A stretch of DNA of 64,000 nucleotides, from the IMG/VR virus record IMGVR_UViG_3300012122_000001, positions 1-64,000 of that record, one strand, 5' to 3'. Below, piece by piece: positions 11,915 through 27,561 of the stretch. The notes under the pieces were generated by a model. It saw nothing but the letters and a program-made list of their open reading frames with translations, searched no databases and was not told where the DNA came from. How positions within the stretch are numbered: the first letter of the stretch is position 1; every line of letters begins with the position of its first letter. The position numbers were made by a program, and so were the translations under genes. Origin of the DNA: a virus (lineage: Duplodnaviria > Caudoviricetes).

Positions 11915-11929
11915 GGTTTCGTTTATCAC

Positions 11930-11958
11930 TTGACATAGGATTCACAGTAGAGCAAAAT
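11930..11958 (+). promoter_or_regulatory. sigma70-like promoter
   Basis: Perfect TTGACA, 17-nt spacer, CAAAAT. Confidence 0.5.
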
Positions 11959-11960
11959 GT

Positions 11961-12028
11961 TATTCGTAGATCGGCAGAGAAGCTCGTAGGAGCAGAATAG
12001 GCCGCGGCGAAAGTCGCGGCTTTTTTTT
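11961..12028 (+). ncRNA. candidate small RNA or attenuator leader
   Basis: About 65 nt between promoter and intrinsic terminator; TATTC/GAATA encloses a GCTC-GTAG-GAGC hairpin. Confidence 0.35.
12001..12028 (+). terminator. intrinsic terminator
   Basis: GCCGCGGC-GAAA-GTCGCGGC followed by T8. Confidence 0.85.
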
Positions 12029-12049
12029 ATGGGCCGAGATGGGGAAGAG

Positions 12050-12220
12050 ATGACGACGGTGATCTGCCCGAAGTGCGGACGTTTCGCACTGAAGGGTAGG
12101 TTCCAGATCGTCGAGACCATCTGCAACGACCGCGATTGTCGCGCGAACTTCGTTGTAGAGGTGCTCGCGGACGGATCGACCGCGATCCGGACTCTTCCCC
12201 GACAGAAGGTTAAGGCGTAG
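12050..12220 (+). CDS. Mu Com-like zinc-ribbon regulator
   Basis: VICPKCGRFALKG...VETICNDRDC resembles Com pattern (I.C..C.+.L.+....iEi.C..C). Confidence 0.5.
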   Translation: MTTVICPKCGRFALKGRFQIVETICNDRDCRANFVVEVLADGSTAIRTLPRQKVKA

Positions 12221-12234
12221 GGTCCACCAGGGCA

Positions 12235-12364
12235 GACGGACCGAGGCCGCGCAACGCGGAGTTGACCTCGAAATGGTCCGTTCGTCTCACAACGGCGCCG
12301 CGCTCCGCGCATCTCATTCCTTCGTTCCTTCTTCTTCCTTGGGGCCCCGCGTCTCCGCGCGGGG
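12235..12364 (+). other. structured leader upstream of protease gene
   Basis: Nested stems ACGGACC/GGTCCGT, CGAGG/CCTCG, CCGCG-CAA-CGCGG; second hairpin CCCCGCG/CGCGGGG; pyrimidine-rich, no SD before ATG 12392. Confidence 0.4.
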
Positions 12365-12391
12365 TTCCTTCAATTTTCTTCCGGTGCCTCG

Positions 12392-13933
12392 ATGAGCTCG
12401 ACCGTCGAAGGGCTCGAGCGCGGAGTCATCGGCACGGACAAAACCATCCAGAGAATGCACCGTCTGGTCGCGCTGGGAAAGCTCGACCCGACGATCCAGA
12501 AGATCGCGACCTGGATCCGCCTGGGCGTGCCCAAGGACGTGCGCGCCTCGACGAAGCTCGCGGCCGACGCGATCTTCAACTGGGTTCAGAAGCACGGTCT
12601 CTTCCAGCGCGACCCGTTCCAGATCGAGAAGATCGAGCATCCTATCGAAGCGATGCGGCCGATCATCGAGGCGCGCAAGGCCGGGACGTACACCGGACCG
12701 GCGCTCTTCGTCGGCGACTGCGACACGATGGCGGGCGTGTACACGGCGAGTTTGCTCGGCGTGCTCGGCTTCCAGTATTCCTTCGAAACCGCCAAGGTCG
12801 ATCCGGATCGCCCCGACGAGTTCTCTCACGTCTGGGTCTCCGCGCGGATCGGGAACGAGTGGTACCCGCTCGACCCGTCGACGCGCGGGGCATATCCCGG
12901 CTGGCGTCCTCCGGTCAAGCCGGAGCAGTTCAAACGCTGGCCGGAGGGACCGATCGAAGACGTCGTGAAAGGGTCCGACATGAGCGCATTCAACAGCGGC
13001 ATGGGGGATAACGGAGAAGACGAAGGCGGCGACGAGCCCGTCATCGAGAACAACGATTCCCCCCTCACCGGAGTCGACGCCGAGTACGCCCAGGACTACA
13101 TCGGATACGGGATCCCCAGGGACTTCGGCAGCGGCCCAGGCGTGATCCCGCCCGGCAACTTCGAGAGCCTCCAGCTCCTTCCGCCGCACGACACGCAGAT
13201 CCCGGCGGCCGACCTGGAGCGGGACATGCATCTGCTCAAGGCGGCGCCGCGCCTGGACCCGTCCGAACGGATCCAGAGCCTCGCCGGTCAGCCGAACGAC
13301 CACGGCAACCCCTACTATCGCGGGGGTGGTCGCCAGCCCTACATCAAGGTCGAGCGCAAGATGTACCCGCCCGGCTCGCGCTGGAACGAGCCGTACGGCA
13401 AGGACACCATCCGCTACCAGAAAACCGACAAGTACATTTCCGTCAAGAGTCCCGAAACACCCGAAAGACGAGTGGAGGTCAAGATGGACCAGCCGATGCT
13501 GATCCGCAGGAGAAACGTCATGACGCCCCCTCAGCGGATCCCGTTCGGCGCAATGGACGGCATGGGCGACATCGATCCCAATACCGGGATCATGACCTTC
13601 GGCTCGACGCCCGCGCCCACGGCGACGCAGACGGCAGCGGCGACCGCCGGAACGTCCGTCTGGGATTCGATCCTGGGCGCATTCTCGTCCGTCGCGAAGG
13701 CCGCCGGAACGATCGTTCCGTCGGTGCTCCAGTCGAAGACCGCGCAGGCCGTCGCGAGCGCGACGAACCGTCTCGCGGGCTCGAACGTGCTGACGGCCGG
13801 GCAGCTCACCAACCCGACGCCCTGGTACAAGAACCCCGTCACGATCGGCCTGGGGCTCGCCACGCTCGGCGGCCTGGGCTACGTCGTCATCAAGATGCGC
13901 CCCGGCATGGGCGGCCGGAGGCGTCGCCGGTAG
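12392..13933 (+). CDS. transglutaminase-like (papain-fold) cysteine protease with C-terminal membrane anchor; candidate virion maturation protease
   Basis: Cys-His-Asp triad in GDCDTMA, FSHVW, WYPLDPS; C-terminal TM (VTIGLGLATLGGLGYVVI) plus RRRRR. Confidence 0.8.
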   Translation: MSSTVEGLERGVIGTDKTIQRMHRLVALGKLDPTIQKIATWIRLGVPKDVRASTKLAADAIFNWVQKHGLFQRDPFQIEKIEHPIEAMRPIIEARKAGTYTGPALFVGDCDTMAGVYTASLLGVLGFQYSFETAKVDPDRPDEFSHVWVSARIGNEWYPLDPSTRGAYPGWRPPVKPEQFKRWPEGPIEDVVKGSDMSAFNSGMGDNGEDEGGDEPVIENNDSPLTGVDAEYAQDYIGYGIPRDFGSGPGVIPPGNFESLQLLPPHDTQIPAADLERDMHLLKAAPRLDPSERIQSLAGQPNDHGNPYYRGGGRQPYIKVERKMYPPGSRWNEPYGKDTIRYQKTDKYISVKSPETPERRVEVKMDQPMLIRRRNVMTPPQRIPFGAMDGMGDIDPNTGIMTFGSTPAPTATQTAAATAGTSVWDSILGAFSSVAKAAGTIVPSVLQSKTAQAVASATNRLAGSNVLTAGQLTNPTPWYKNPVTIGLGLATLGGLGYVVIKMRPGMGGRRRRR

Positions 13934-13938
13934 GTTCG

Positions 13939-14220
13939 ATGCGCTACATCCGCTACGTCAAGAGACCCGGCATCGGAGATTCCGTCACCGACGGACTCAC
14001 GACCGGCTTCACCGCTTCGGTCGCCGAGGCCCTGGAGCCGAAGATCCGGACCATCCTGAAGGAGGACATCCTTCCCATGGTGATGGTGGGTCTCGTCGCG
14101 GGCGCCGTAGCGGCGTCGGTCATCGGATCCTGGTTCGCTTCGCGCCCCTCGCGGTCCGGAGTCCGGTCGAACCCGGTCTCCAGGATCCACATCCCTCTGC
14201 GTCGCCGGAGGACCGCATGA
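13939..14220 (+). CDS. small virion membrane protein
   Basis: One TM, GIGD and RSNP motifs, basic tail; ATGA coupling. Confidence 0.7.
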   Translation: MRYIRYVKRPGIGDSVTDGLTTGFTASVAEALEPKIRTILKEDILPMVMVGLVAGAVAASVIGSWFASRPSRSGVRSNPVSRIHIPLRRRRTA

Positions 14221-17200
14221 GCTACCAGGATCTCAAGTCCAGGATGGTCGCGCACCTCAAGAAGTGGGCGCGTGGAATGGTTGATTCCGGCGAGGGCATG
14301 AACTTCAGCATCGAGTCGGCGATTTACTGGTTCGCGAACGACTACCACAACGGCGGCGGAAGCGAGCTCTACCAGATCCTCTCGACCTCGAAATTTCGTC
14401 CCGGTCCGTCTCATCGGTCGGTCGACGATGAAGGCGACGAGATCGACAAAATGATGTACGAGGAGCTGGAGCGGTACTTCATCCCAAAAGGAAGAGCGAG
14501 GAACAACGGTCACACGGGCGTTCGAAAGAACCCTCCGTCCTTCATCCTGATCGACAAAGAGACCGGACTCGTCGTGTACACGAAGCGGGCGACCGGCGTC
14601 GGCAGCGCAGCGATCTCGGCTTGCGTGAAGCGTGGTCACGAGCTCGCGGACCAGCACAACCGCGTCTACACCGTCTTCCTGGACATCCGCGGCCTCTCTC
14701 GTGGCATGAAGGTCCATGTCCCGGCGATCTATGCGCTCGGGATCACCGAAGAGATCCATCCGGGCGGTCAGTCCGTCCGTCCGAATTCTCGCGGCGCCGT
14801 ACGGAAGAACATCTTCACCTTCAACAATCCGAAGCTGAAGTTCAGCGATCTCTCGGTCGGCGAGACGTTCGTGTTCGCCTCCCAGGACGATCCCAAGTTC
14901 CTGACCAGCGGAATGGCGCGCGGTCCGTGGATCAAGCGCAGCGCCAGGACGTACGAACACGTCGACGACGTCGGCAAGCAGATCTCGGAGCGGAGGTACG
15001 GCGGCGGCCATATCGCCGTCGGAAGCGCCTCCGTCGGAGTGAAGCGCATGAGCCTCGGACGGGAACTGCCGAAGCTCTGCCCTCACTGCGACGCCTCGTA
15101 TATCGGCACGCCCCAGATGCACAAGTTCGAGTGCGCTCCCCAGGGCGGAGCGAACCTGTACCAGGAGAACCCGCGCCGCAGATCCGCTCGTCGGAACCCC
15201 ACGATGGGATCCTACGAGGTCTTCGTCGGGAACATCGGGCAGGTCTACGACGGGAACGATCGGGCGAAGGCGCAGCACTCCTTCGACTACTACGTCGCCA
15301 TGTCGAAGCGTACCAGCGGTCGCGCGAGCGGCGAGGATGTCGCCCTCCTCTGTGAAGGCGAACTCAGCCAGGAGTACATCGGAAGCAAGGGACGCGAGCG
15401 CGGAGATCATCGGCGCGGCGTCCGCCGGAACATCTTCACCTTCAACAATCCTCCGTCCGGCCCGGCAGATCCGGCCGCGGCGCGCGAGCTCGAGGTCTAC
15501 ATCGAGAACGACGCCGACCTCTACCGGCAGCAGTTCGTCCCGATCGTGAAGAATCTGATGCTGAAGCGCCGGAAGGGCGTCTACAACCGCGAGCTGGCGG
15601 TCAAGCTCTTCATGTACCTGATGGACGCGGGCGCGAAGAAGTACGTCGCCGAGTACGTCCGCTCGTCGTCGCCCGGCGCGCCGATGCCGAAGATCGACGG
15701 CACCTTCAACAAGAACACGCGCCTGATGGCCGCGCGGTCCTTCCTGGAGTCCTTCGAAGGCGAGGCGGAGCTCGGGAACTACGACCGGATGATCGGTCCG
15801 GTCTCGAACCCTCGGGGGGCAAACGTGCGGAAGAATATCTTCACCTTCAACAACCCGAAGCAGCGTCCTCTGAACGAGATGGAGAACGCTGCCAGTCTGG
15901 TCGGCCTGACCGTCACGACCTGGGCGCCGGGCGACGGCGTGACGCGCTACCGCTTCTTCAAGGCAGGCGGAAGTCGGTACGCCGACTATCACCAGGGCGG
16001 CGCTCTCTACACGGCGCTCGGCCGGAAGGAAGCGATCGCGTTCATCAAGTCGTACGGCGTCGGCCGTAGCCGGATGAATCCGCTGAACCAGAAAGAAATC
16101 GAGCAGATGCGCGATCGCGAGAGGTTCTACGTCGGTCGCTCTCAGAAGTACGGTTCCGAGGGGAAGGAAGCGGATGCCGCTCACTTCCGAGGCGCCGCGC
16201 AGGAGAGTCGGAACATTCGCGAGCGTCACCATGCCAAGGGCACGGATTGGTGGCCGAATCCCCCTGTCTGCTCGAACCCGCTCGTCCGCGGCGACAAGCT
16301 TCCTCACAACCTCCGGATGGAAGTGCGGAATCGGTTCATCTACCGCTGGACGTCCGACAACGATCGTCGCGCCGAAGTCTACGGCCTCTGCCCGCACTGC
16401 AAGACGCGGGGCGGGAAGCCCTCCGAGACCAACATCGCTTGCCGTCAGGTCCACCCGACGATCCCGCTTCAGACGGACGAGCAGTGGCTCAAGACGCACG
16501 CCTTCCACGTCACGAAGGCGGGTCGTCTCAGCGAGCGGCATAACCATGCGGAGCCGGGCTACATGGCCGACGACGAGACCAGGAAGAATCCGATGTCGCG
16601 CCGCGAAGCCGCAGGAGAGATCCGGGAGATCCGCGGCGCGAGAAGCAAGATGCGCTACTTCCATCGGCTCGGCCGTCCGGAAGCTGCCGAGTTCCAGGAC
16701 GGATACGCTCACGGAGTCGCAGGAGCGGTTTACCGCCGCGGTCCGAAGTCCGCGCGTCGTGTCGTCGATCGCGCGGTCCGCTCGAATCCGCTCCTCCAGA
16801 CCGTGATGCTGGCGAATCCTGGATCGGTGAAGACTTTCAGCGAGATGCAGGACGTGGGCAAGGCGAAGTACGTTGTGAACTATCACGACGGAGTGAAGGT
16901 GCATCGCGACGGTAGCCCGTTTTTCGACATCGCCATTTTCAGCAATCGGGCTAAGAAAGATCAGTTCGTCAGGAAGTTGGAGAGCCTTGGATTTACTCGG
17001 GGCGCCCTTCGGAACCCGCCGATCTCCACGCAGTGGGATCGGATGACGCGCCGCCAGCGCGAGGCGCTCCTGGAGATCGTCGGCTACGATCGTGACTTCT
17101 CCGGCGGCATGACGCTGTCCACCTGGGGCGCGCTCTCTCCCGCCGCGAAGCGGAAGCTCGAGGCTCAGTGGCTCGACACGACGTCAAGCGGCGGAACGAC

Positions 17201-17858
17201 GCGCCGTCGGCGCCGCTCGCCGGTCGCGGTGAATCCGCTGACCAGGAAAGAAGCCGCGTCGACGGTCAGAAGCGCAAAGTTCGACCTTCGATACGGGTCG
17301 GCGTTCGCGCCCGGACACACGCGATCCGGCTCGGCCGGTCGCGCGTTCGGGAAGGCAACGGTCGTTCGTGACTTCGGCCCCAGGTCAGCCGGTCGGGCCG
17401 CGAGCAAGATCATGAAGCGTTCCGTCGACCTGACGCACGCCGTTCGTACGAACCCCGGCATCAAGTACCCGAAACCCGGCACGAAGATGACCGTCGCCCA
17501 GGCGATGGACCTCGCGCGCCGGATCGGCAACAAGGATCTGATCAAGCAGTGCGAGGAAGCCGCGAAGCTCCAGAAGGTCGCGAACCGCGGCGCGAAGGTC
17601 GTCATCTGGAAGGAGCTGCCGATCGGCTCGCCGAACAAGATCGACATGGTGACGGCCTTCGCCCATTACGGCGACTCTCCGGAGACGATGTACCGGCCGC
17701 CGAAGGGCTCGAAGAAGGGCCCGCATATGTACCGCCACAAATGGGGCGAGGGAACCGGCAAGAAGAAGTCCGTGCCGATCCTGGCGGCGCCCGGCGGCAA
17801 AGCACTCATCACGCTGATGGGCAGCGACCAGAAGACCGGCGATTGGATGAGAGGCTAG
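14217..17858 (+). CDS. modular polyvalent protein, about 13 small domains separated by Asn-Pro linkers
   Basis: 1213 aa; 16 NP dipeptides counted, mostly R-x-N-P or hydrophobic-(A/N)-N-P, spaced about 60-110 aa. Confidence 0.85.
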   Translation: MSYQDLKSRMVAHLKKWARGMVDSGEGMNFSIESAIYWFANDYHNGGGSELYQILSTSKFRPGPSHRSVDDEGDEIDKMMYEELERYFIPKGRARNNGHTGVRKNPPSFILIDKETGLVVYTKRATGVGSAAISACVKRGHELADQHNRVYTVFLDIRGLSRGMKVHVPAIYALGITEEIHPGGQSVRPNSRGAVRKNIFTFNNPKLKFSDLSVGETFVFASQDDPKFLTSGMARGPWIKRSARTYEHVDDVGKQISERRYGGGHIAVGSASVGVKRMSLGRELPKLCPHCDASYIGTPQMHKFECAPQGGANLYQENPRRRSARRNPTMGSYEVFVGNIGQVYDGNDRAKAQHSFDYYVAMSKRTSGRASGEDVALLCEGELSQEYIGSKGRERGDHRRGVRRNIFTFNNPPSGPADPAAARELEVYIENDADLYRQQFVPIVKNLMLKRRKGVYNRELAVKLFMYLMDAGAKKYVAEYVRSSSPGAPMPKIDGTFNKNTRLMAARSFLESFEGEAELGNYDRMIGPVSNPRGANVRKNIFTFNNPKQRPLNEMENAASLVGLTVTTWAPGDGVTRYRFFKAGGSRYADYHQGGALYTALGRKEAIAFIKSYGVGRSRMNPLNQKEIEQMRDRERFYVGRSQKYGSEGKEADAAHFRGAAQESRNIRERHHAKGTDWWPNPPVCSNPLVRGDKLPHNLRMEVRNRFIYRWTSDNDRRAEVYGLCPHCKTRGGKPSETNIACRQVHPTIPLQTDEQWLKTHAFHVTKAGRLSERHNHAEPGYMADDETRKNPMSRREAAGEIREIRGARSKMRYFHRLGRPEAAEFQDGYAHGVAGAVYRRGPKSARRVVDRAVRSNPLLQTVMLANPGSVKTFSEMQDVGKAKYVVNYHDGVKVHRDGSPFFDIAIFSNRAKKDQFVRKLESLGFTRGALRNPPISTQWDRMTRRQREALLEIVGYDRDFSGGMTLSTWGALSPAAKRKLEAQWLDTTSSGGTTRRRRRSPVAVNPLTRKEAASTVRSAKFDLRYGSAFAPGHTRSGSAGRAFGKATVVRDFGPRSAGRAASKIMKRSVDLTHAVRTNPGIKYPKPGTKMTVAQAMDLARRIGNKDLIKQCEEAAKLQKVANRGAKVVIWKELPIGSPNKIDMVTAFAHYGDSPETMYRPPKGSKKGPHMYRHKWGEGTGKKKSVPILAAPGGKALITLMGSDQKTGDWMRG
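14802..14831 (+). repeat. in-frame linker repeat RKNIFTFNNP, copy 1
   Basis: cgg aag aac atc ttc acc ttc aac aat ccg. Confidence 0.9.
15423..15452 (+). repeat. in-frame linker repeat RRNIFTFNNP, copy 2
   Basis: cgc cgg aac atc ttc acc ttc aac aat cct. Confidence 0.9.
15828..15857 (+). repeat. in-frame linker repeat RKNIFTFNNP, copy 3
   Basis: cgg aag aat atc ttc acc ttc aac aac ccg. Confidence 0.9.
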
Positions 17859-17868: not shown

Positions 17869-18987
17869 ATGATCGGAGCACTTGTATTTGCGAACCCCGG
17901 ACGGCCTGTAGCCGCTCGGAGGAGACGTTCGCGTTCCCGTACCGCCCGCACGACGGGCAGGAGAGTCAAGATGGCACGCACCCGTTCGCGCCGTCGCACC
18001 GGGCGGCGCATCCGGCGGAATGCCAAGGGGCATTTCGTCACCCGGCGCCGGTCGACCCGGCGTCGGCGTCGGAATCCCAGCGGCTTCATCAAGGTCGGCC
18101 GCCGCTGGAAGAAGATCACGAAGTACGCCCGTCGGCGCCGTCGGGGCAGCCGGAAGGGCCAGATCCGGGCCTTCAAGTTCCCGAAGCGGTATCGGCGGAG
18201 CCGCCGGGTTCGTCGGAACCCCGTGGTCGTCGCCAACCCGCGTCGGAGCCGTAGCCGTCGGGCGCGGCGCAACCCGTATCGGCGTCATCGCCGGTACGTC
18301 CGTCGGAATCCCAGCGTCGCGTATCGGCTGACGTCGGATCCGGTCGCGGCGATCAAGTCGGCGATCATGTCCGCGTTCTCGATGGACACCGTCGAGACGC
18401 TGTTCCACATGGGCCTGGGCTTCGGCTCGTCCATCGTGGTCAGCCGGACGCTGATCAAGCAGTGGCTGCCGGTCCTCGGCGAGACCGCTCTCGGCCGGGT
18501 CGGCGGCACGTTCGGGACCGGCGTGGTCCTGACGGCGCTGTCGAGCTTCCTCAAGAACTCGAGCCTCACGGCCCGGTTCCTGACCGGCTCGCTGTTCGCC
18601 ACCTTCTGGCAGGGCCTGTCCGAAGTCGTGTCGGCCTACCAGCCTCAGCTCAAGGAGTTCATCCCGACGCTGTCGGGCGCTCCGGAGACCGAGGAGTTCC
18701 GTCGCGCGATCGAGCGGGAAGTTCTCCGCGAGCTCAAGGGCGGCGTGAACGAATACCTGCCCGCGGCGGGCGCCGAGGGGTACTCGACGTACCTCCGCCC
18801 GGCCGGGATCGAGTACCTCCGTCCCGCCGGGACGGAAGCGTACCTCACCGAAGTGGGCGCGGAGCGCGCCCAGGGAGGCATGGGCGCCTTCCTGACCGAC
18901 CGCGAGGTCAGTCGCGTCGAAGCCCGGCCCAGCGGGGTCGGCGAGGACGAGTTCGGCAGGGGCGACACCCTGCCGGAGCGGTTCTAG
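17869..18987 (+). CDS. Arg-rich (protamine-like) core/membrane protein
   Basis: About 56 Arg and no Asp/Glu in first ~150 aa, six NP motifs, central hydrophobic helices, C-terminal YLxPAG repeats; strong AGGAGA RBS. Confidence 0.8.
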   Translation: MIGALVFANPGRPVAARRRRSRSRTARTTGRRVKMARTRSRRRTGRRIRRNAKGHFVTRRRSTRRRRRNPSGFIKVGRRWKKITKYARRRRRGSRKGQIRAFKFPKRYRRSRRVRRNPVVVANPRRSRSRRARRNPYRRHRRYVRRNPSVAYRLTSDPVAAIKSAIMSAFSMDTVETLFHMGLGFGSSIVVSRTLIKQWLPVLGETALGRVGGTFGTGVVLTALSSFLKNSSLTARFLTGSLFATFWQGLSEVVSAYQPQLKEFIPTLSGAPETEEFRRAIEREVLRELKGGVNEYLPAAGAEGYSTYLRPAGIEYLRPAGTEAYLTEVGAERAQGGMGAFLTDREVSRVEARPSGVGEDEFGRGDTLPERF

Positions 18988-19002
18988 GCATCAATCAAGG
19001 AA

Positions 19003-19146
19003 GCCCTGGGAGGGAAACCTCCCAGGGCCTCCCCCAGGGCGGCCCAGTGCGGGCCTTCCTGGGGGAGTCGGGCAGGTAAGCACCAGCCCGTCCCGGTGGG
19101 ATGTAGCAGCAGGCCGAGAGGCCGCTTGAGGTCATTGTGACCTCAA
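19003..19146 (+). other. multi-hairpin structured RNA leader of capsid gene
   Basis: 11-bp stem with GAAA loop (19003-19028); 10-bp stem 19029-19038/19058-19067 with inner GGCCC/GGGCC; GGCC-GAGA-GGCC; 9-bp TTGAGGTCA/TGACCTCAA. Confidence 0.6.
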
Positions 19147-19182
19147 CCCGCAGAATGGTGCTTGATCAAGGAGATCGAGAGT

Positions 19183-19821
19183 ATGCCTCCTCCCATGGAT
19201 GCGGGCGCGCCGATCCAGGTCGTGCAGCCCTACTACAAGATCGTGCAGGGCGTTCCTGCGGCGATCGTCCGGTCGTACAAGCAGCCCCTGTACGACTCGG
19301 AAGTGATCCTCTCCGCGTCCCCGACGCGGGAGTTCACGCTGTACTCGAAGCCCGTCGGCCAGATGCTGAACGACGCGGCGACGACCAAGACGTTCGTCCA
19401 CTCGAACCAGACGCAGGCCGGGTCGCTCGGCACGCCTCTGAGCTTCGACGTGTACGGCTTCAACAAGCGCGTCTGGGGCGGCGTCGCGACCAAGGTCATC
19501 ACCATCGGCAACTCGACCCTGGTCGAGGCCGCGGGCGTGGCCGAGGTCATCTTCGGTCAGGACACGAAGTTCCTGACGATCCCGATCGAAGACGTGCCGT
19601 CCGGCGTGGACTACGAGGGCATGGGCGCGACCGATGCGCCGCACATCGGCCTCGGGCAGTCCGACAACCTGTACCGCTTCGACGTGGGCGGTCGGGCGCT
19701 GCACATCAACTCGACGGAGCCGTATCAGGTCAAGATCTCCTGGCCGTCGAGCCTCTCCGGCATCACCGGCAACCTGCTGTTCCGGTGGTTCATGCGCGGA
19801 ATCCTTTACAAGGGCGTCTAG
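19183..19821 (+). CDS. probable single jelly-roll major capsid protein
   Basis: 212 aa, beta-strand alternation throughout (KQPLYDS, FTLYSKP, SFDVYGF, YQVKISW, FRWFMRG); AAGGAGA RBS; flanked by hairpins; follows core protein. Confidence 0.55.
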   Translation: MPPPMDAGAPIQVVQPYYKIVQGVPAAIVRSYKQPLYDSEVILSASPTREFTLYSKPVGQMLNDAATTKTFVHSNQTQAGSLGTPLSFDVYGFNKRVWGGVATKVITIGNSTLVEAAGVAEVIFGQDTKFLTIPIEDVPSGVDYEGMGATDAPHIGLGQSDNLYRFDVGGRALHINSTEPYQVKISWPSSLSGITGNLLFRWFMRGILYKGV

Positions 19822-19854
19822 AAAAAACGTCCTTGTGCCTTCAGGCGCAACTTC

Positions 19855-19879
19855 GGGTGGCCCCTTCGGGGGCCATCCC
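19855..19879 (+). other. GC-rich UUCG hairpin after capsid gene (no U-tract)
   Basis: GGGTGGCCCC-TTCG-GGGGCCATCCC. Confidence 0.6.
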
Positions 19880-19963
19880 TTGATGAGCCCGACGAAGAGT
19901 CAGTAGCGTCCCGCACTGTTCGCGGTCCGCTTCCCTGCTGAGTTAGCTCGGAAGGAGACGACG

Positions 19964-20917
19964 ATGAGCTGGTCCCAGGTTCCGACATTCCTCCGCATCT
20001 CGGACAAGGATCCCGATCCCAAGAAGCGCGGGATCATCTACATGAACCCGGCGAAGGACTGGGTTCAGCCGTTCGAGCTGACGGTTTCGAAGCCGAACCA
20101 AGTCATCCGTCTCGCCGCGGGCGAGCAGCGCGGGCCCTTCCCGCTGACGGCGCAGTACGACGGCCCGATCGAGGTCTTCTACGTCAAGGCCAACGTCTAC
20201 GAGGACGACGACGGGGAGCCCGGCGCCCTGGTGAACTCGTACGACATCGACGTGCTCCTGGAGCATCCGGGCAAGCGGATCCAGTTCATGAACCGCTTCG
20301 TCCCGCTCGACGCGATGTCCGGAAACGCCGGGCTGCCGTACGTCCTGCCGGAGACGATCTTCATCCCGCCGGTCCAGTCGCTCAACCTGACGCTCGTCAA
20401 CAACGATCTCGCCAACGCGCGGCACGTCGAGTTCGTCCTGGGCGGCATCAAGTTCTACCCGAACATGGCGCCGTCCGAGATCCGCGGCGAGACCTGGAAG
20501 TACGTCGACCGCCGCGAGCGGACCTACGCCTACCTCATGACCACCGACGAGGAAGCCGTCGTCGCCGCCTCGGCCACCACGCCCTTCTTCATGACGATCC
20601 CCGACAACGCGGATCTCGAGGTCTTCAAGCTGACGGCCAAGGCGACCGCCGCCTTCCGCTGCCGCGTGCGCGACGGTCAGAACGACCGCGCCCTCACCGG
20701 AGACCTCGTCCACTCGGCGCTGCTCTTCGGCGGCCACCAGCCGCTCTCGGGCAACGCTGCGGTCACCGGATCCGGCGGTCTCTTCCCGGCACGCTGGGCG
20801 ACCTCGTGGCTCATCCGGCGGTCGACGAAGGTCCAGCTCGATCTCCAGGACATCAGCGCCGCGGAGAACGAGATCAAGGTCATCTTCGGAGGCAGAAAGA
20901 TCAGCTATGTCAGCTAA
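19964..20917 (+). CDS. probable double jelly-roll-like capsid protein (internal tandem duplication)
   Basis: Two ~150-aa beta-rich halves align by eye: IEVFYVKA/LEVFKLTA, GLPYVLP..IFIP/GLFPARW..WLIR, LNLTLVN/VQLDLQD, VEFVLGGIK/IKVIFGGRK. Confidence 0.6.
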   Translation: MSWSQVPTFLRISDKDPDPKKRGIIYMNPAKDWVQPFELTVSKPNQVIRLAAGEQRGPFPLTAQYDGPIEVFYVKANVYEDDDGEPGALVNSYDIDVLLEHPGKRIQFMNRFVPLDAMSGNAGLPYVLPETIFIPPVQSLNLTLVNNDLANARHVEFVLGGIKFYPNMAPSEIRGETWKYVDRRERTYAYLMTTDEEAVVAASATTPFFMTIPDNADLEVFKLTAKATAAFRCRVRDGQNDRALTGDLVHSALLFGGHQPLSGNAAVTGSGGLFPARWATSWLIRRSTKVQLDLQDISAAENEIKVIFGGRKISYVS

Positions 20918-21617
20918 AAATCCGCCTCGCCCTCCTCGGCGCCCCAGGCGCGGAGGAATGGGCGATGACCAGTACTTCTACGAGGGATGGCGCGACGCAG
21001 GCCAGGGGGAACCCAGGCCGATGGACGTCGTGTCCGATCCCAACTGCCCGCCGCCCAAGGAAGCGCAGCAGTGCGGGAAGGTCAAGCTCAACTGGGTGAA
21101 GTTCCCGGCCTTCAACCAGCCGCCGTTCTTCGCCAAGCCGCTCATCAAGGCCCGGTCGTCGCTCGTGATCCCGGCCGGGGACATCGCGCTCATCTTCGAC
21201 CGCGAGATCGCCGATCGCCAGCGTGCGATCGTCTCTCTCGTCGGGATCGACGTCGCGCCGATCGCGCCGCTCCTGAACTCGCAGCTTGAGTTCTGGTTCC
21301 AACTCGGCCGCCAGGGCGTTCCCGAAGTTTCGAAGAACGTCATTCCGGTCTGGGACGACCAGAATCCGACCGGCTACGGCGGGTCGACCCCGATCCAGTC
21401 CGGCCGGACGACCGTGTGGCCCGGTGTCGCGACCCCGGAGGAGTTCTTCAAGAACGGCCTCCAGTTCGGCGTACGCGGCCGGGGCCAGCTCCAGGGACTC
21501 ATCGAGAACAAGTCCGCCGTCGACGTCACGGTCCGCGGGATCCTGGGTTACTACTACTACTGGTCCAGCGGCCCTGGTGGTGCCTCGGAGTTCGAGGCCG
21601 GAGATTTCCAGGCGTAG
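20907..21617 (+). CDS. probable minor/penton-like jelly-roll capsid protein with basic propeptide
   Basis: MSAKNPPRPPRRPRRG-GMGD N-terminus, then beta-rich domain ending VTVRGILGYYY. Confidence 0.45.
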   Translation: MSAKNPPRPPRRPRRGGMGDDQYFYEGWRDAGQGEPRPMDVVSDPNCPPPKEAQQCGKVKLNWVKFPAFNQPPFFAKPLIKARSSLVIPAGDIALIFDREIADRQRAIVSLVGIDVAPIAPLLNSQLEFWFQLGRQGVPEVSKNVIPVWDDQNPTGYGGSTPIQSGRTTVWPGVATPEEFFKNGLQFGVRGRGQLQGLIENKSAVDVTVRGILGYYYYWSSGPGGASEFEAGDFQA

Positions 21618-21626: not shown

Positions 21627-22106
21627 ATGCCCGCACCACTGAACCCTAACCTCTGGCCGTCGGTCCTCCACGATGAGGACGGCAACCCGATCTCGGCAAC
21701 GAATCCCCTGCCCGTAACGGGGCCGGGTGGCGGTCCGGTCGAGAACGTCCTCACCCAGGTCCGGCAGGTCCAGAACGAAGAGACCACCACGCCCCTGGGG
21801 GCCGGTGCGACCTTCAACGGCGCCGATCGGGACTGCGAGAATTACGAGAGCTTCGGAATCTCCGTGTTCCTCGATCCCGACGCCGGGCAGGCACTGAACT
21901 GTTCGGTCCTGGTCGAGAACAGCATCGACGGCGTGACCTGGAGGACGGTCGACACGGTCTCCGTCGCGGGCGCCGCTGATGCGTCATCGACCCTGAACCG
22001 CGTCTACTCGGTCACGCGCCGGTTCTACCGGGTCAGCGTGATCAACAACGACGGATCGAACGGACTCGACGCGACCGAAGTCATTTCGATGATGAAGCCC
22101 ATCTAA
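21627..22106 (+). CDS. vertex/spike-associated beta-sandwich protein A
   Basis: NPLPV anchor segment, TTTPLGAGATFNG..SIDGVTW..YRV pattern typical of virion beta-sandwich proteins. Confidence 0.55.
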   Translation: MPAPLNPNLWPSVLHDEDGNPISATNPLPVTGPGGGPVENVLTQVRQVQNEETTTPLGAGATFNGADRDCENYESFGISVFLDPDAGQALNCSVLVENSIDGVTWRTVDTVSVAGAADASSTLNRVYSVTRRFYRVSVINNDGSNGLDATEVISMMKPI

Positions 22107-22370
22107 ATGGAGAAGCTCTGCAAGGATCCGTCCTGTATGGTCGAGGTCCGCGACGGTGAGGCGGCGTCTGAGAAGCTCTTCCTTGATCAGACAAACGGTC
22201 GCGTGATCTCCCTGGTGCGCCACGAGGTCTGCGCGGAGAAGTACACGACGCCGGGATCAAGGTTCCGGCGGATCTCCCAGGACGAGAAGAAGGCGCTGCT
22301 GTCCCCCGCGTCGGCTCTCAAGAACGAGCTCGCTGCGAGGCAGCGCATGAAAGTCCAGGTGGTCAAGTGA
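22107..22370 (+). CDS. small zinc-binding protein B
   Basis: CxxxxC...HEVCAEKY. Confidence 0.6.
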   Translation: MEKLCKDPSCMVEVRDGEAASEKLFLDQTNGRVISLVRHEVCAEKYTTPGSRFRRISQDEKKALLSPASALKNELAARQRMKVQVVK

Positions 22371-23584
22371 GCAGGCAGAGAAGCTCGATTGAATGGCAGG
22401 ATATCGTCGCGGCGACATTTGTCGTCGGGAAGGATCTCGTCGAGTGCGACTACCTGACCCACCAGGAGGCGATCGACAATCTCCCGGTATCGGGCGGCGG
22501 CGTCTACACACTGCCTGGGACATACTCCCAGGCGGTCACGATCACGATGCCTGACAAGGACGTCACGTTCGAGTTTGCGTCGGGCGTGACCATGTCGATC
22601 GGCTCGACCGTCATCGCGCTCTTCACGGTTCCGGACGGCCTCACGGATAGGCGTACCTACTGCTTCTATGGTCTTACGGCCACCGCTGGAGATGTTGCCG
22701 ATCAGACCTTCATGGAGCTGGCGGAGACGAACGCGCAGGGCATCGTGAAGTTCTACAACTGCACGATGACCGGCTGGAACGTCATCTTCGACGTCTCCGC
22801 TTCCGATCTCGACTACATCTTCCCGGTCGATATGTACCTCTACGGGTGCCGTCTCGAGGCTGCGGTCGGCCTGGGCGACAACACCATCGTCAAGACTGTG
22901 GCGGCAGCGGGAGCCTTTACGAGCGGCGTCGTGCTGTGGGCGCAGGACACGATGCTCAACACGGAGCAGGCCAGCGTTGCTGTCTGGAGCAGCTTCAATT
23001 ACGGCTTCGACCTGATTTCTGACGGAACCGTCTATGCTCTTTTCCAGGGCCCGTGCAAGCTCGACGGCCTTCAGGGGCCGCTCCTCCTGTACGGCTCCGG
23101 CGTCTTCGGGATGTGGGCACTCGAAATATTCGGGGGAAACTACTGGGCGCGATCTGAGTGGATTGGCGGCGCGCTTTCTTATGGTGCGCTCACCATTTCG
23201 ACCTCGATCTATCAGTTTGACAACAACCTTCAGCAGGCTGGCACCATTATCGTCAATGCCCCCTACTGCAAAATCAACGTCAGGTACTCGGACCTTGGAG
23301 GCTCACCTCCTGCGGTCGAGGTCGACCTTCTTTCCACCGCGCATCGTTGTGTGATTTCTGGAAACTTCGGAGATAACACTACCGCTGCGGTCCGCGTTGC
23401 CAGCGTCTACAACAGGTTCATCGGATGTCTCTTCGAGTCGTCGGGCGCCCACGGGACGATCGTGGAGACCGGTGCCGCCGACAACAACATCGGCGTCGGC
23501 TGCGCGGGACTCTCCAGTGGCGGCGGGATGACGATCATCGGCGCCGGTTCGGTGTTCGACCTGACCCTTGCTAACCTTCCGTAG
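22367..23584 (+). CDS. spike/receptor-binding protein, pectin-lyase-like beta-helix
   Basis: THQEAIDNLPVSGGGVYTLPGTY start of right-handed beta-helix; Asn/Gly ladder C-terminus; GTG start. Confidence 0.65.
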   Translation: MSRQRSSIEWQDIVAATFVVGKDLVECDYLTHQEAIDNLPVSGGGVYTLPGTYSQAVTITMPDKDVTFEFASGVTMSIGSTVIALFTVPDGLTDRRTYCFYGLTATAGDVADQTFMELAETNAQGIVKFYNCTMTGWNVIFDVSASDLDYIFPVDMYLYGCRLEAAVGLGDNTIVKTVAAAGAFTSGVVLWAQDTMLNTEQASVAVWSSFNYGFDLISDGTVYALFQGPCKLDGLQGPLLLYGSGVFGMWALEIFGGNYWARSEWIGGALSYGALTISTSIYQFDNNLQQAGTIIVNAPYCKINVRYSDLGGSPPAVEVDLLSTAHRCVISGNFGDNTTAAVRVASVYNRFIGCLFESSGAHGTIVETGAADNNIGVGCAGLSSGGGMTIIGAGSVFDLTLANLP

Positions 23585-23592
23585 GAGGAGCT

Positions 23593-23901
23593 GTGGCTGA
23601 GATCATCTGCAACGTCTGCCAGCTCCCGATCAAAGACCCGGCGGAGCAGATCGACCGCCTCTACGTCATCACCGCGAACAAGATGAGGCCTCTCCCGGCG
23701 CAGAAGAAGCACGACGCCTGCGCGGAGGTGTACGAGCGCAAGCGTGGACTCCAGCGTCGGTACCTCAAGACCGGTGAGTCGAAGCTCCCGGAGCTTGTCA
23801 AGACGCCTCCGGTGAGGCGCACGCCGCAGGAGAAGACCGCTGATGCTGCCGCCCTGGAGGCGGTCATCGCGCAGCAGCAGGCCGCCGCGAAACTGAGGTA
23901 G
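23593..23901 (+). CDS. small zinc-binding protein B-prime (paralog of 22107)
   Basis: CNVC...HDACAEVY; AGGAGGAG RBS, GTG start. Confidence 0.6.
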   Translation: MAEIICNVCQLPIKDPAEQIDRLYVITANKMRPLPAQKKHDACAEVYERKRGLQRRYLKTGESKLPELVKTPPVRRTPQEKTADAAALEAVIAQQQAAAKLR

Positions 23902-23904
23902 AGA

Positions 23905-24348
23905 ATGCCCGCACCACTTAATCCAAATCTCTGGCCGTCGGTCCTGCATGACGAGGAAGGGAACGTCATCAACGGGACAAATCCGCTGCCGGTCACGGGA
24001 CCAAGCGGCCCAGGCAGCGCCATTTCCGTCAAGGGATCTCCTGGGGCCACGATCACGACTGACCCGGATGTCGCGGTGCCCGGAACGGGCGGCACGGTTC
24101 CCCTGGGCCCGATTCCCGCGGGAACCCGCCGGATGTACGTCCAGAATGCCGGACCGGCCGGAACCTGGGTTCGCGTCCGTGAGGTCGGCGGGACGGCAGG
24201 ATCCGGCAGGCTTCTCCCGCGCCTGGGCGAAGCCATCTACGGCGGCGCCGACGGCGCCCTGGCCCAACTTGAGGTCCAAGACGTCTCCCTGGCGGTCGGG
24301 TTATCCGCGGTCGCGACAGTCATCGCGGTTCAGTACGAGGGAGACTAA
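23905..24348 (+). CDS. vertex/spike-associated protein A-prime (shares N-terminus with 21627)
   Basis: MPAPLNPNLWPSVLHD.EGN....TNPLPVTGP; different small beta-sandwich C-terminus. Confidence 0.6.
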   Translation: MPAPLNPNLWPSVLHDEEGNVINGTNPLPVTGPSGPGSAISVKGSPGATITTDPDVAVPGTGGTVPLGPIPAGTRRMYVQNAGPAGTWVRVREVGGTAGSGRLLPRLGEAIYGGADGALAQLEVQDVSLAVGLSAVATVIAVQYEGD

Positions 24349-24354
24349 CCTCTA

Positions 24355-25059
24355 ATGCCTGCTCCCACGTTCCTGGAACTGGCAAGGTCGATCGACCGGC
24401 AGCTCGCCGGAAACATCAACTTCCCATTTCGGACCCTCCCGGACGGCGCCTCAGCCATCACGGACAACGACTTCTATCTGGCGATCGACGCCGCCCTGGG
24501 GAACGCCGTAATCACCCTTCCAAGTGCCGTGACGGTGAAGAGCGGCCTCGGCTACCGCGTCATCCGGGTCGACAGCGTGCTCACGAACACCGTCGTGATC
24601 GGCACGACGGGCGGACAGACCATCAACGGCGGATCATCGGTGGCGATCACGCTCCAGTACTCCGTGCTCGATATCGTTTCCGACGGAACCAACTGGCTCC
24701 TCTTCGCGAGCCCGTCGGCTTACGCCTCAGCGACCGACGTCCTGTGGACGTTCCCTGGGACGGTTTCCGACGACCAGGACAACAACCTCTACACGCTCCT
24801 GGCTCCGAGGGCCATGAGCTTCGTCGGCTTCGACGTCAACCTCAACCTCGCCCCGGAGGGAGCGGATCTCATCGTCGGCTGGCTCGTCAACGGAATCGAT
24901 GAGCCGAGTGCCCAGGTGACGGTACCGGCCGGAGATACGGACGCCACCGTCGCGTTCCCGATCTCGCTCGCGCAGGGTGACACGCTTCAGCCTTACGTTG
25001 CCCAGGTCGGCGTACAGACGCCGGGATTGACGATGGTCATCAGAGCGAGGGGGACTTAA
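24355..25059 (+). CDS. fibre/spike-related two-domain beta protein
   Basis: ITLPSA...GYRVIRVD...QTING...VSDGTNW motif common in phage fibre proteins; beta-sandwich C-domain. Confidence 0.55.
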   Translation: MPAPTFLELARSIDRQLAGNINFPFRTLPDGASAITDNDFYLAIDAALGNAVITLPSAVTVKSGLGYRVIRVDSVLTNTVVIGTTGGQTINGGSSVAITLQYSVLDIVSDGTNWLLFASPSAYASATDVLWTFPGTVSDDQDNNLYTLLAPRAMSFVGFDVNLNLAPEGADLIVGWLVNGIDEPSAQVTVPAGDTDATVAFPISLAQGDTLQPYVAQVGVQTPGLTMVIRARGT

Positions 25060-25060
25060 C

Positions 25061-25867
25061 GTGGCCGCACCGACCTACCTTGCGAACAACTACAACTTCC
25101 TGGAGACGGCCGGGCAGACCGACGTCGCCAATACGATCACCAGGATCATCGCGCAGGCCCTGGCGATGGGATGGACGAATCCGAGTGGCAACATCGTCAA
25201 GTCGCCGCCGAACGCCGTCGGCCAGTTCATCCAACTGACCTTTGCCCGAATCGGCGCGACGAACCTCGAGATGGTGCTCCTCGACTCGCTCTCCCGCACG
25301 TTCACCAGGAGAGCGCAGCCCGCCGCAACCTTTGTCGAGCGGCTCTATGTGAACACCCAGGGGATGATGATCGACTTCGACAACGGAGAGGGCCTCTGGG
25401 CCTCGATCCTCGATCTCTCCCCGGAGCTCCAGGACGCGCACGACCAGTTTGCCATCGGCAACGGCGCCAGGACGGTGGCCAACACGCTCGACTCCTTCTA
25501 TCAGGTGGCCGGATCGGAGCAGCTTTCCTCGGCCACCCCGCGCGTCTACACAATCATCCAGTTCGCGGGGCTGTTCGTCCCCCGTGGCGATCTCCTGTCG
25601 GCGGCCAGCCCCCAGGGGATCCAGAGCCTCAGTCAGCCTGGGTCGCGACTCTGGTATCCGTGGATCTTCTGCGGCCCGGTGGTCGGCACCACCAACCGAA
25701 TCCGCGGTCGCGTGTTCCAGGCTCTGATCACGGACCCCACCCTTCCGGCGCAGACCGAGGTGGTTGTGCCGATCGACGGAGCGAACACCGCGACATTCAA
25801 GGTGACGGCCATGCCGACCGGCCTTGCCGGAACCTTCAACGGCAAAGTCGCCTGGAGAAAGGCATAA
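25061..25867 (+). CDS. virion surface protein, distant paralog 1
   Basis: Starts MAAPTY, LTFARIGATNLEM and ends GKVAWRKA, matching the next two genes; GTG start. Confidence 0.6.
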   Translation: MAAPTYLANNYNFLETAGQTDVANTITRIIAQALAMGWTNPSGNIVKSPPNAVGQFIQLTFARIGATNLEMVLLDSLSRTFTRRAQPAATFVERLYVNTQGMMIDFDNGEGLWASILDLSPELQDAHDQFAIGNGARTVANTLDSFYQVAGSEQLSSATPRVYTIIQFAGLFVPRGDLLSAASPQGIQSLSQPGSRLWYPWIFCGPVVGTTNRIRGRVFQALITDPTLPAQTEVVVPIDGANTATFKVTAMPTGLAGTFNGKVAWRKA

Positions 25868-25871
25868 GAAG

Positions 25872-26699
25872 ATGGCCGCCCCGAGCTACTGGAACACCGT
25901 ATTCAGAAAGAGCGTCTCAGCGGCGTTCACGGACGTCGCGGACTGGCTGACCGCCATCCGGACGATGCTCACCTCGACTCTTCCGGTCGGTTCGCGCTGG
26001 ACGGAAGGGGCAACGAACGTCTACACCTCACCGGCAGACCCGGTGTCGGGATACACCATCGTGCTCACCCTGGCCCGCACTTCGGCCGTGCGTATGTTCA
26101 TGAGCTGCACTCAGACCGTCAACGGCGTCGGTTACGGAGTCCTCCAGGGGGAATGCGACATCTCCGGCAGCGTTCAGGCAAATATATTTGCTGGTCCAAC
26201 GCATTTCTGGACCGAGATTCCCGGCGGAGACTTTGGTGGCTGTGTGGGAGTAGATACGACGCCGGAGCCCCCTGGTCAGATTACGAGCTACGTCTTTTCG
26301 AAGATGTCTCGCAACATCGTTCAGGCCGCATTCAACCTTCAGGCAGACATGTGGCACGCCCAGGACGCGAACGTGGATGCCGGAGCACCCGTGCGTGCCA
26401 GATGTCAAGGCCCGTATTTCGTTGCCAACGCCACAGGCTATGAGTTCAAGACTGCCGCCGGGAGCTTCATCTACTTCCCTGCGGTCGGCGTTACCTATCC
26501 CACGCAAGGTCTCAATACGAACCAGAAGTTCTGCGGAATCTTCCCACAGTTCGTCTGGGTCGATCCGTCGTGGATCGGTGGGAACCTCGTTCCTGTTCCC
26601 GTCGACTTCGGCGTGATCGGCGTCTTCCAAGTGGTGAGCTCGCTCATGACCGCCGCCAACAACACCAACGGTGCGAAGCTTGCTATAAGGGTGGCGTAG
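25872..26699 (+). CDS. virion surface protein, paralog 2
   Basis: Near-colinear with 26704..27561; ends GAKLAIRVA. Confidence 0.75.
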   Translation: MAAPSYWNTVFRKSVSAAFTDVADWLTAIRTMLTSTLPVGSRWTEGATNVYTSPADPVSGYTIVLTLARTSAVRMFMSCTQTVNGVGYGVLQGECDISGSVQANIFAGPTHFWTEIPGGDFGGCVGVDTTPEPPGQITSYVFSKMSRNIVQAAFNLQADMWHAQDANVDAGAPVRARCQGPYFVANATGYEFKTAAGSFIYFPAVGVTYPTQGLNTNQKFCGIFPQFVWVDPSWIGGNLVPVPVDFGVIGVFQVVSSLMTAANNTNGAKLAIRVA

Positions 26700-26703
26700 C
26701 GAT

Positions 26704-27561
26704 ATGACCGTCCCCGCCTACTGGAGCACCGAATTCCGGAAGTCCATAACGGCACCGTTCACGGATGTCGCGAGCTGGCTGACTGCGATTCGGACGATGC
26801 TGACCGTGACGCTGCCGGTCGGTTCGCGCTGGACGGAGAGTAATCCAGGCGTCTCGAACAGCTACACGTCTCCGGCAGATCCGGTAAACGGGAACGTGAT
26901 CGGGATGAATTTCACCCGTACTTCAGCCGTGCGCCTGTATATGCTTTCCTTCTACCAAGTCCCGCCAGCCGCCGGTGCCGGTATCCTCCAGGGAGAGTGT
27001 GACATCTCCGGCACCGTCCAGGCGAACATCTTTGCGGGCCCGTTTCACTTCTGGACAGAAGTCGTAAACGGCGGCCTCCCCAACGGCGACTTCATGGGTG
27101 TCGTTGGGGTTGCTACGGTGCCGGAACCGGAAAATCAAATCACGAACTTCGGATTCGGAAAGCACTCCCGCAACGTCGCCCAGAACCCCTTCAATCTTCA
27201 GGCCGACATGTGGATGACCCTCGACGCAAACGTAGACGGCGGATTCCCGGTTCGCGCGCGCTGTCAGGGGCCATACTTCGTCGCTAACGCTGCGGGCTAC
27301 GATTTATTTACAGCCGCAGGAAGCCCCGTATACTATCCTGCTGTCGGAGTCACCTATCCGACGCTTGGATCAAACGCGAACACACGGTTCTGCGGAACTT
27401 TCCCGCAGTTTGTCTGGGTCGACAAATCGTGGCTGGCGGGTCAGTTTGTTCCGGTTCCCATCGACGTCGGAGTGACCGGCATCTTCCAGGTCGTGAGTTC
27501 GCTCATGACCCCGAGCAACGGCGGTTCCAACGGCGCGAAGCTCGCGATAAGGGTGGCGTAG
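26704..27561 (+). CDS. virion surface protein, paralog 3
   Basis: Shared blocks WLTAIRTMLT..LPVGSRWTE, LQGECDISG.VQANIFAGP, FNLQADMW, RARCQGPYFVANA. Confidence 0.75.
   Translation: MTVPAYWSTEFRKSITAPFTDVASWLTAIRTMLTVTLPVGSRWTESNPGVSNSYTSPADPVNGNVIGMNFTRTSAVRLYMLSFYQVPPAAGAGILQGECDISGTVQANIFAGPFHFWTEVVNGGLPNGDFMGVVGVATVPEPENQITNFGFGKHSRNVAQNPFNLQADMWMTLDANVDGGFPVRARCQGPYFVANAAGYDLFTAAGSPVYYPAVGVTYPTLGSNANTRFCGTFPQFVWVDKSWLAGQFVPVPIDVGVTGIFQVVSSLMTPSNGGSNGAKLAIRVA

Follow-up and report, generated by a model that had tools for sequence, protein, structure and literature searches.

The three-gene module and the genome that carries it

The stretch of DNA analysed here (the window, 64 kb) comprises bases 1-64000 of the 72,725-bp IMG/VR virus record IMGVR_UViG_3300012122_000001. 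Its positions 19,183 to 21,617 hold three consecutive genes for proteins of 212, 317 and 236 amino acids (aa), which an earlier note, made from the letters alone, had described as jelly-roll genes of a tailless virus. All three open reading frames (ORFs) are indeed present: they lie on the + strand (Table 1), are conserved, and show a strong third-position GC bias (GC content at third codon positions, GC3, of 0.86-0.93). [quoted passage not shown] The larger proposal of the note, a large and poorly described tailless lineage encoding single and double jelly rolls, is supported by structural models, by synteny and by the link to SSIP-1.

An in-frame TTG at 19162 would extend the first product to 219 aa; the ATG at 19183 is favoured because of its AAGGAG Shine-Dalgarno sequence and the fit to homologue lengths. 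For the 236-aa gene, an alternative start at 20958 would give 219 aa. None of the three proteins matched Pfam, PHROG, NCBIfam or PDB sequences, even when profiles were compared with the PDB sequences, and the GenBank phage records held no match to the 317-aa protein. Homologues clustered at 90% identity numbered 107 for the 317-aa protein, 81 for the 212-aa protein and 42 for the 236-aa protein, always on the same contigs, many of which are 64-75 kb long. A profile search of 1.84 billion representatives placed 489 clusters (at 50% identity) in the 317-aa family at E<=1e-3, with 224 at E<=1e-10. In tblastn comparisons with five relatives the 212-aa protein was 63-79% identical and the 317-aa protein 55-75%, while the 236-aa protein is a core gene product in six genomes with homologues 49-85% identical. 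In two distant members of the family the gene upstream of the 317-aa homologue encodes a 212-aa homologue (hhalign probabilities of 99.9% and 99.7%); the 212/317 gene pair stays together even in distant relatives.

Two arrangements of the 212-aa homologue elsewhere are recorded here as side observations. One genome (G004, IMGVR_UViG_3300050821_005575, ~12057-14516) carries ~0.9 kb of extra sequence on either side of the gene relative to the window. On L003 (JGI 3300045738), a 28.6-kb contig whose 317-aa homologue is the most distant of the close ones, the gene (7486-9902, +) is split into nine collinear exon-like pieces by eight related intervening sequences of ~210-260 nt. These have a common multi-helix structure, for which 57 pairs are predicted, with compensatory double changes in 29; two of the sequences score as group I introns (27.9 and 22.4 bits), below the Rfam gathering threshold. 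For a phage gene of ~640 nt, eight putative introns would be an exceptional number; there are none in the window's own genome.

The earlier note treated the genome as open-ended, at least 64 kb; it is in fact complete at 72,725 bp, with a CheckV completeness of 100%. An exact 123-bp repeat occurs at the two ends of the record. In three related complete genomes the ends overlap by 127, 124 and 27 bp, at map positions that differ; the repeats are therefore overlaps left by the assembly of circular or circularly permuted genomes and not fixed ends. The genome is thus a complete, circularly mapped double-stranded DNA, and its complete relatives are consistently 67-75 kb. The clade is large, widespread and uncultured, and the family of its capsid protein extends well beyond it. 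A phage-type replication module (PrimPol-D5, AAA_24, DEAD_2 helicase) lies on the - strand, and no tRNAs were found in the genome. Among 185,579 species genomes, the single match was a 14-kb contig binned into a Thermoanaerobaculia metagenome-assembled genome, and the element is therefore not a chromosomal island. Host assignment from bin labels was set aside, as both this label and a 'Thermoplasmata' label on another contig were judged unreliable. In the literature searched, we found no paper describing this 67-75-kb group.

Modelled folds of the encoded proteins and probable kinship with SSIP-1

The 317-aa protein was modelled by AlphaFold2 from a 36-sequence alignment with a predicted local distance difference test score (pLDDT) of 88.6 and a predicted template modelling score (pTM) of 0.83. 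The model contains two sandwiches of at least eight strands each (~34-164 and ~187-313) linked by a helix at 171-186. Searching with Foldseek followed by re-alignment matched it to the STIV capsid protein with a VIA Z of 11.2 over 231 residues (root-mean-square deviation 4.3), to PRD1 P3 with Z 9.6-9.8, to PM2 P2 with Z 8.7 and to phiCjT23 with Z 8.4. Cellular double jelly rolls also matched, with Z 11.0-11.5 for GH172/DUF2961 and 8.7-10.7 for PHM and PNGase F. An exhaustive alignment against 48,161 PDB representatives, independent of Foldseek, gave the same set, which makes the assignment of the fold secure. Sixteen chains reached Z>=8, namely double-jelly-roll proteins (STIV, PRD1, PM2, FLiP, GH172, PHM, PNGase F) and one single-barrel chain of HHIV-2, an archaeal virus that contains a membrane; one barrel of the model matches the HHIV-2 chain at Z 8.5 and a chain of HCIV-1 at Z 7.9. 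As modelled, the 317-aa protein shares its double jelly-roll fold with the PRD1, STIV and PM2 capsid proteins, in line with the tandem-double jelly roll of the earlier note.

The two halves of this protein are also alike in sequence. Profiles of residues 28-170 and 183-317 aligned in hhalign with a probability of 91.6% (E 8.1e-7, score 43.5, 108 columns), against scores of 12.0 +/- 2.4 for 30 column shuffles (maximum 19.1) and 15.3 for a reversed half. BLASTP between the halves was not significant (E 0.35), and the duplication is visible by profile comparison only. The motifs GGIK (K163 invariant) and GGRK (G310, R311 and K312 invariant) fall on the last strand of their respective barrels, so that the earlier description of a duplicated protein whose halves both end in GG[IR]K holds up, with the motifs closing both barrels. 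On this profile evidence the 317-aa protein is an internal duplication whose barrels have remained alike in sequence.

For the 212-aa protein, AlphaFold2 gave a pLDDT of 75 and a single beta sandwich, ordered over residues 33-212 with the N-terminal 32 residues disordered. Its viral matches were a HHIV-2 chain (VIA Z 6.0), the SPV1 capsid protein (6.0), enterovirus VP1 (5.9) and a HCIV-1 chain (5.3), with weak matches to single barrels of PRD1 P3 and PBCV-1. A protein-atlas search returned PM2 P2 and PRD1 P3 clusters as weak leads (score 0.75-0.77) for this family and no match for the 236-aa family. The single jelly-roll gene of the earlier note is thus borne out as far as the modelled single sandwich goes, but the structural matches are weak (Z<=6.2), and the model is of a single beta-sandwich protein that is jelly-roll-like and no more. 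Comparison of the three families with one another by hhalign gave nothing (probability <=1.2%), so that no sign was detected of the 212-aa protein being an unduplicated version of the 317-aa one.

SSIP-1, a salt-lake phage, is the closest known relative, a distant one and the only one in culture. The 317-aa model has I1ZBI0 (256 aa, template modelling scores 0.56/0.68, E 1e-8) as its top match in BFVD, and I1ZBH9 (211 aa, 0.43/0.43, probability 0.99) ranks second for the 212-aa model with the highest template modelling score. In the SSIP-1 genome (JN880423), gp46 and gp47 are neighbours; their products, of 211 and 256 aa, are annotated as structural, and the two genes come after that for a giant structural protein, gp43, and then gp44 and gp45. 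From their lengths, consecutive accessions and the hhalign ranking, we infer that I1ZBH9 and I1ZBI0 are gp46 and gp47. When each family was compared by hhalign with all 57 SSIP-1 proteins, the best match was gp47 for the 317-aa family (14%), gp46 for the 212-aa family (2.8%) and gp48 for the 236-aa family (1.1%). With three top ranks on three collinear SSIP-1 genes, chance is a very unlikely explanation, roughly (1/57)^3. In addition, the hidden Markov model (HMM) of the family of a 513-aa protein encoded upstream matches the SSIP-1 virion protein gp34 at E 3.8e-7, across GDCD/ADCD, SHVW/DHVY and LDPS/LDPT. SSIP-1 is described as an unclassified virus of ~100 nm with triangulation number T=49, a circular 44-kb genome, an internal membrane and 'two MCP types' (two types of major capsid protein), and is marked '(single jelly roll?)' in one review table (PMC6260650, PMC6356626, PMC4958249). 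The range of ~10-31 kb that the note gave for characterised prokaryotic members missed this phage (43.8 kb, T=49, unclassified).

Proposed roles of the putative shell proteins and competing explanations

On the models and their likeness to SSIP-1, we give about even odds to the 212-aa protein being a second abundant shell protein, as SSIP-1 reportedly has two MCP types; that it is the penton is a good deal less probable. The RNA around the 212-aa gene is strongly structured. In the leader, positions 18988-19130 fold at -93.4 kcal/mol (z -7.5), and 0/200 shuffles were as good. The intergenic region downstream of the gene contains one hairpin at 19833-19850 and, at 19855-19878, a 10-bp stem capped by a UUCG loop. 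Three relatives (G001-G003) have hairpins at the same places flanking the gene, with different stem sequences but pairing kept (covariation). The ~40 nt before the start codon of the 317-aa gene, including the Shine-Dalgarno sequence at 19950-19957, are nearly identical in four genomes whose proteins are ~72-75% identical. A further hairpin at 19934-19955 overlaps this Shine-Dalgarno sequence in the minimum-free-energy (MFE) fold but not in the centroid. Neither canonical terminators (including the T-tract) nor sigma-70 promoters were found at 17.8-22.5 kb, and no Rfam family reached its gathering score in the window. These features suggest separate control or stabilisation of the 212-aa message, which fits an abundant product without proving one.

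The 236-aa protein has a Pro/Arg-rich N-terminal extension, common to several homologues, and its gene stands between the double jelly-roll gene and genes for spike-like proteins. Two such proteins, of 159 and 147 aa, are encoded ~2 kb apart and are alike over their first 35 aa only (86% identity). The N-terminal ~19% of the 159-aa protein is 66-87% identical in 5/5 relatives and the remainder is not conserved; the protein has a weak PHROG 'tail protein' match (E 8e-4). We regard the 236-aa protein as a candidate for the base of the five-fold vertex because the adjoining genes show a pattern of exchangeable spikes on a conserved vertex protein, an assignment that falls slightly short of even odds.

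In double jelly-roll viruses, the gene for the major capsid protein typically has a single jelly-roll penton gene next to it. The model of the 212-aa protein is a single barrel, and the strongest alternative is a PRD1-type arrangement in which the 317-aa protein is the sole lattice protein, the 212-aa protein a pentameric penton base and the 236-aa protein a spike adaptor or a vertex or minor protein. Several observations make this arrangement unlikely, if still worth weighing. The 212-aa protein is better conserved than the double jelly-roll protein (63-79% against 55-75%), its gene is bracketed by the conserved stabilising hairpins, and its best solved viral matches, all weak, are lattice single barrels (HHIV-2, HCIV-1, SPV1) and not pentons. 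Reviews give SSIP-1 two MCP types, and the spike-like genes come after the 236-aa gene and not the 212-aa gene.

A second alternative concerns the capsid itself. The 317-aa protein might have no capsid role and be a turret component, or else a lectin or enzyme with a double jelly roll (GH172/PNGase-like), the true capsid and packaging proteins being of HK97 type and too diverged for HMMs. GH172/DUF2961 chains are nominally its best PDB matches, scoring as high as capsid proteins (Z 11.3-11.5 versus 11.2), so that the fold alone is no proof of a capsid role, and many core ORFs lack annotation. However, the protein has no match to the Pfam DUF2961 signature at E<=0.01, and its nearest viral neighbour carries the annotation of a structural protein of SSIP-1. 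Those large late proteins that lack annotation resemble coiled-coil, membrane or Arg-rich proteins and not portal or terminase, and there is no conserved TerL-like P-loop in six genomes. Scans of the whole 72.7-kb genome (Pfam, PHROGs and NCBIfam on large ORFs; Pfam in six frames) gave no terminase, portal or HK97 capsid signal, extreme divergence being possible; the sole signal for HK97, TerL or portal was an 11.9-bit sub-threshold match in a low-complexity tail. The note's statement that no such genes were recognisable thus extends to the complete genome. We consider this alternative very improbable, and keep to the capsid role for the 317-aa protein.

The packaging motor is less straightforward. 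A HerA/FtsK-like ATPase on the - strand matches Pfam DUF87 (E 3e-10) and phrog_2666 'terminase large subunit' (E 5e-13). By jackhmmer, Pfam DUF87 and Walker-A scans, it is present in 3/6 related genomes (G000, G001, G002), and one of the three without it is 100% complete. In two relatives with capsid proteins 73-79% identical, the ATPase is only 27-31% identical. P-loop proteins common to the six genomes are replication proteins only. The ATPase was accordingly demoted as the packaging enzyme of the group, being absent from half of the genomes; from its sequence it possibly serves as the packaging ATPase of this genome.

Least probable of all is that the element is not a virus but a plasmid or a secretion- or vesicle-related island carrying jelly-roll proteins, for although there is no virion evidence and the packaging ATPase is not conserved, this sits poorly with an IMG/VR record of 100% CheckV completeness, the phage-type replication module, complete relatives of consistently 67-75 kb, homology and synteny with an isolated phage, SSIP-1, and one match, a 14-kb binned contig, in 185,579 species genomes.

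Several points nevertheless weigh against the jelly-roll virus proposed here. No virion has been seen, and the virus is known from prediction alone. Enzymes match the 317-aa model as well as capsid proteins do. The matches of the 212-aa protein to solved structures (Z<=6.2) are level with GOLD domains and similar sandwiches. The hhalign probabilities to SSIP-1 (14%, 2.8% and 1.1%) are low, and the identity of the BFVD entries with gp46 and gp47 does not come from a name. The downstream gene of the distant family members is not detectably homologous to the 236-aa protein. The usual FtsK/HerA packaging ATPase is not conserved and is not a core gene of the group; with this hallmark missing from the core, simple membership of the Varidnaviria is not established.

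If the assignments are right, trimers of the 317-aa protein would form pseudo-hexameric capsomers, and the two spike-like proteins would dock on the 236-aa protein via their common 35-residue N-terminus. The shell would assemble over a vesicle studded with the many transmembrane proteins of the operon, and an Arg-rich 372-aa protein may condense the DNA. Scaling by volume from SSIP-1 (44 kb, ~100 nm, T=49) gives a rough estimate of ~120 nm and T ~65-75 for a shell holding a 73-kb genome.

Neighbouring genes and comparison with known systems

Table 1. Features of the late operon and other genes discussed in the text (window coordinates)
Feature	Position	Strand	Evidence
Late operon start: 672-aa charged coiled-coil-like protein, small proteins, 513-aa protein, 93-aa transmembrane/poly-Arg protein, 1213-aa protein	9599..17858	+	conserved, syntenic
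513-aa protein, transglutaminase-like Cys-His-Asp core (GDCD/SHVW/LDPS), C-terminal transmembrane helix, poly-Arg tail	12392..13933	+	gp34 homologue
372-aa protein, ~150 N-terminal aa extremely Arg-rich, C-terminal half hydrophobic	17869..18987	+	sequence; core gene
Strongly structured leader upstream of 212-aa gene, several long GC hairpins	18988..19161	+	folding
212-aa single jelly-roll-like shell protein (SSIP-1 gp46-like)	19183..19821	+	AlphaFold2, VIA, BFVD, homologues
Intergenic region between 212-aa and 317-aa genes	19822..19963	+	MFE -60.9 kcal/mol, z -3.2
317-aa double jelly-roll protein, candidate major capsid protein (SSIP-1 gp47-like)	19964..20917	+	AlphaFold2, PDB comparison, BFVD
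236-aa conserved protein, candidate penton/vertex protein	20907..21617	+	position, conservation
159-aa spike-/fibre-like protein, conserved 35-aa N-terminal anchor, variable C-terminus	21627..22106	+	tblastn
Variable 7.5-kb cassette, including 405-aa protein and 687-aa BNR/Calx-beta protein	22107..29625	+	Pfam, tblastn
147-aa paralogue, only the N-terminal anchor in common with the 159-aa protein	23905..24348	+	paralogue comparison
642-aa HerA/FtsK-superfamily ATPase, coiled-coil linker, two C-terminal winged-helix-like repeats (...SGYxxSGGFRNxLxTxRTAG...)	52834..54762	-	Pfam, PHROG

The late operon, on the + strand, spans ~9.6 to 41.9 kb. At least 10 of its proteins have transmembrane segments predicted by a crude hydropathy scan, in agreement with the many membrane proteins noted earlier, and it is only from these that an internal membrane is inferred; the virus probably has one. 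The genes at the start of the operon (9599..17858) gave no Pfam, PHROG or NCBIfam matches. The membrane-anchored 513-aa protein is possibly a maturation protease or a lytic enzyme. The 372-aa protein, 42-62% identical in five relatives, is a candidate DNA-condensing, membrane-associated core protein, as judged by its composition. Together with the 93-aa protein (13939-14220, +) it makes up a protamine-like pair of candidate DNA-membrane links. The 1213-aa protein (14217-17858, +) contains three copies of the motif VR[KR]NIFTFNNP; in relatives its length ranges over 834-1213 aa and only 23-39% aligns, and one orthologue carries Pfam PF23790 (Kyano_Gp96). Its gene occupies the place of that for the 2319-aa structural protein gp43 in SSIP-1.

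Downstream of the 159-aa gene, the variable cassette has no tblastn match in five related genomes. Its 687-aa protein matches Pfam PSII_BNR (E 8e-24) and Calx-beta (E 1e-14), and the cassette is a probable host-recognition module. Beyond it follow conserved small and membrane proteins and a glycosyltransferase. A 447-aa membrane protein (31329-32672, +) has weak NCBIfam matches to the alpha-pore-forming MakE and MakA (E 3.5e-4 and 5.4e-4) and is possibly a membrane-active entry or lysis factor, judging by these matches. The genome also encodes several glycosyltransferases (GT1/GT4), methyltransferases and ThyX, together with a PAPS-reductase-domain protein (40289-41623) and a PRA-PH-like pyrophosphohydrolase. 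For a phage with a genome this large, such a set of modification genes is unusually rich; further loci of the set are at 34471-35811 and 55469-56707 of the window and at L002:1926-3470, 5857-6633, 7554-8144 and 11251-12684 (genome 61926-72684).

Taken together, the group is notable for its genome size, its single-plus-double barrel pair, a visible duplication and a missing core ATPase, within a barely described SSIP-1-like type. The family of 489 clusters has no Pfam model, named relative or GenBank phage match. Published prokaryotic double jelly-roll genomes span 7-18 kb (PMC5894146), and PMC11071308 puts the genomes of the whole phylum Preplasmiviricota below 50 kb; genomes of 67-75 kb exceed both ranges. 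The keeping of single and double jelly-roll genes as a pair is useful for open questions, and since the halves of the double barrel are still alignable, the single-to-double transition is open to study by sequence and not by folds only. Since the group can dispense with the canonical packaging ATPase, one may ask how a genome of 70 kb is brought into the capsid. More tentatively, and with the odds against it, the 67-75-kb viruses and SSIP-1 could form a distinct deep lineage that builds one shell from a single-barrel and a double-barrel protein, the double barrel being a comparatively recent duplication with its symmetry of sequence preserved, and that fills a large capsid without an FtsK/HerA motor. 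If so, they would stand as a living intermediate between the capsid lineages with single and with double barrels, and would package their DNA in a way of their own.

Among known systems, the Caudoviricetes differ in their HK97-fold capsid, portal and large terminase, of which the HMM scans gave no signal here. The GH172/DUF2961, PHM and PNGase F enzymes share the fold at equal strength (Z 8.7-11.5), but the 317-aa protein has no Pfam DUF2961 match and lies in a viral late operon. With double jelly-roll viruses of the STIV, PRD1 and PM2 type, the protein shares the same two-barrel fold (~215-242 aligned residues, Z 8.2-11.2), and the tailless architecture with internal membrane of these viruses is expected here as well. 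In contrast, there is no sequence or Pfam relationship to them (Pfam P3, P2 and others), the barrels here retain detectable sequence similarity, and the FtsK/HerA packaging ATPase that these viruses keep is not core in the present group.

The Halopanivirales (P23-77, HHIV-2, HCIV-1, SH1) likewise have a single-barrel gene beside the gene for a larger capsid protein. The HHIV-2 chain matches both the 212-aa protein (Z 6.0) and a barrel of the 317-aa protein (Z 8.5), as does that of HCIV-1 (Z 5.3 and 7.9). However, the larger partner in the present pair carries both jelly rolls side by side on a single chain and matches PRD1 and STIV along its full length, and the adjacent conserved ATPase of the Halopanivirales is absent from the capsid module.

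The present virus and SSIP-1 have several features in common: a ~211-aa gene with an adjacent double jelly-roll-like gene and then a small gene (gp48 in SSIP-1), all downstream of the gene for a giant structural protein; a virion protein of transglutaminase-like type (gp34 in SSIP-1, the 513-aa protein here); a late operon rich in transmembrane proteins; and a circular genome map. The genome described here is 1.7 times larger, its double jelly-roll protein has 317 aa where gp47 has 256, and the sequence similarity of the capsid proteins lies close to the limit of detection (hhalign <=14%). The literature gives SSIP-1 'two MCP types' or '(single jelly roll?)' and not a double jelly roll. The present comparison suggests that this orphan isolate, listed as a possible single-barrel virus, may encode a double jelly roll and could serve as a tractable laboratory model.

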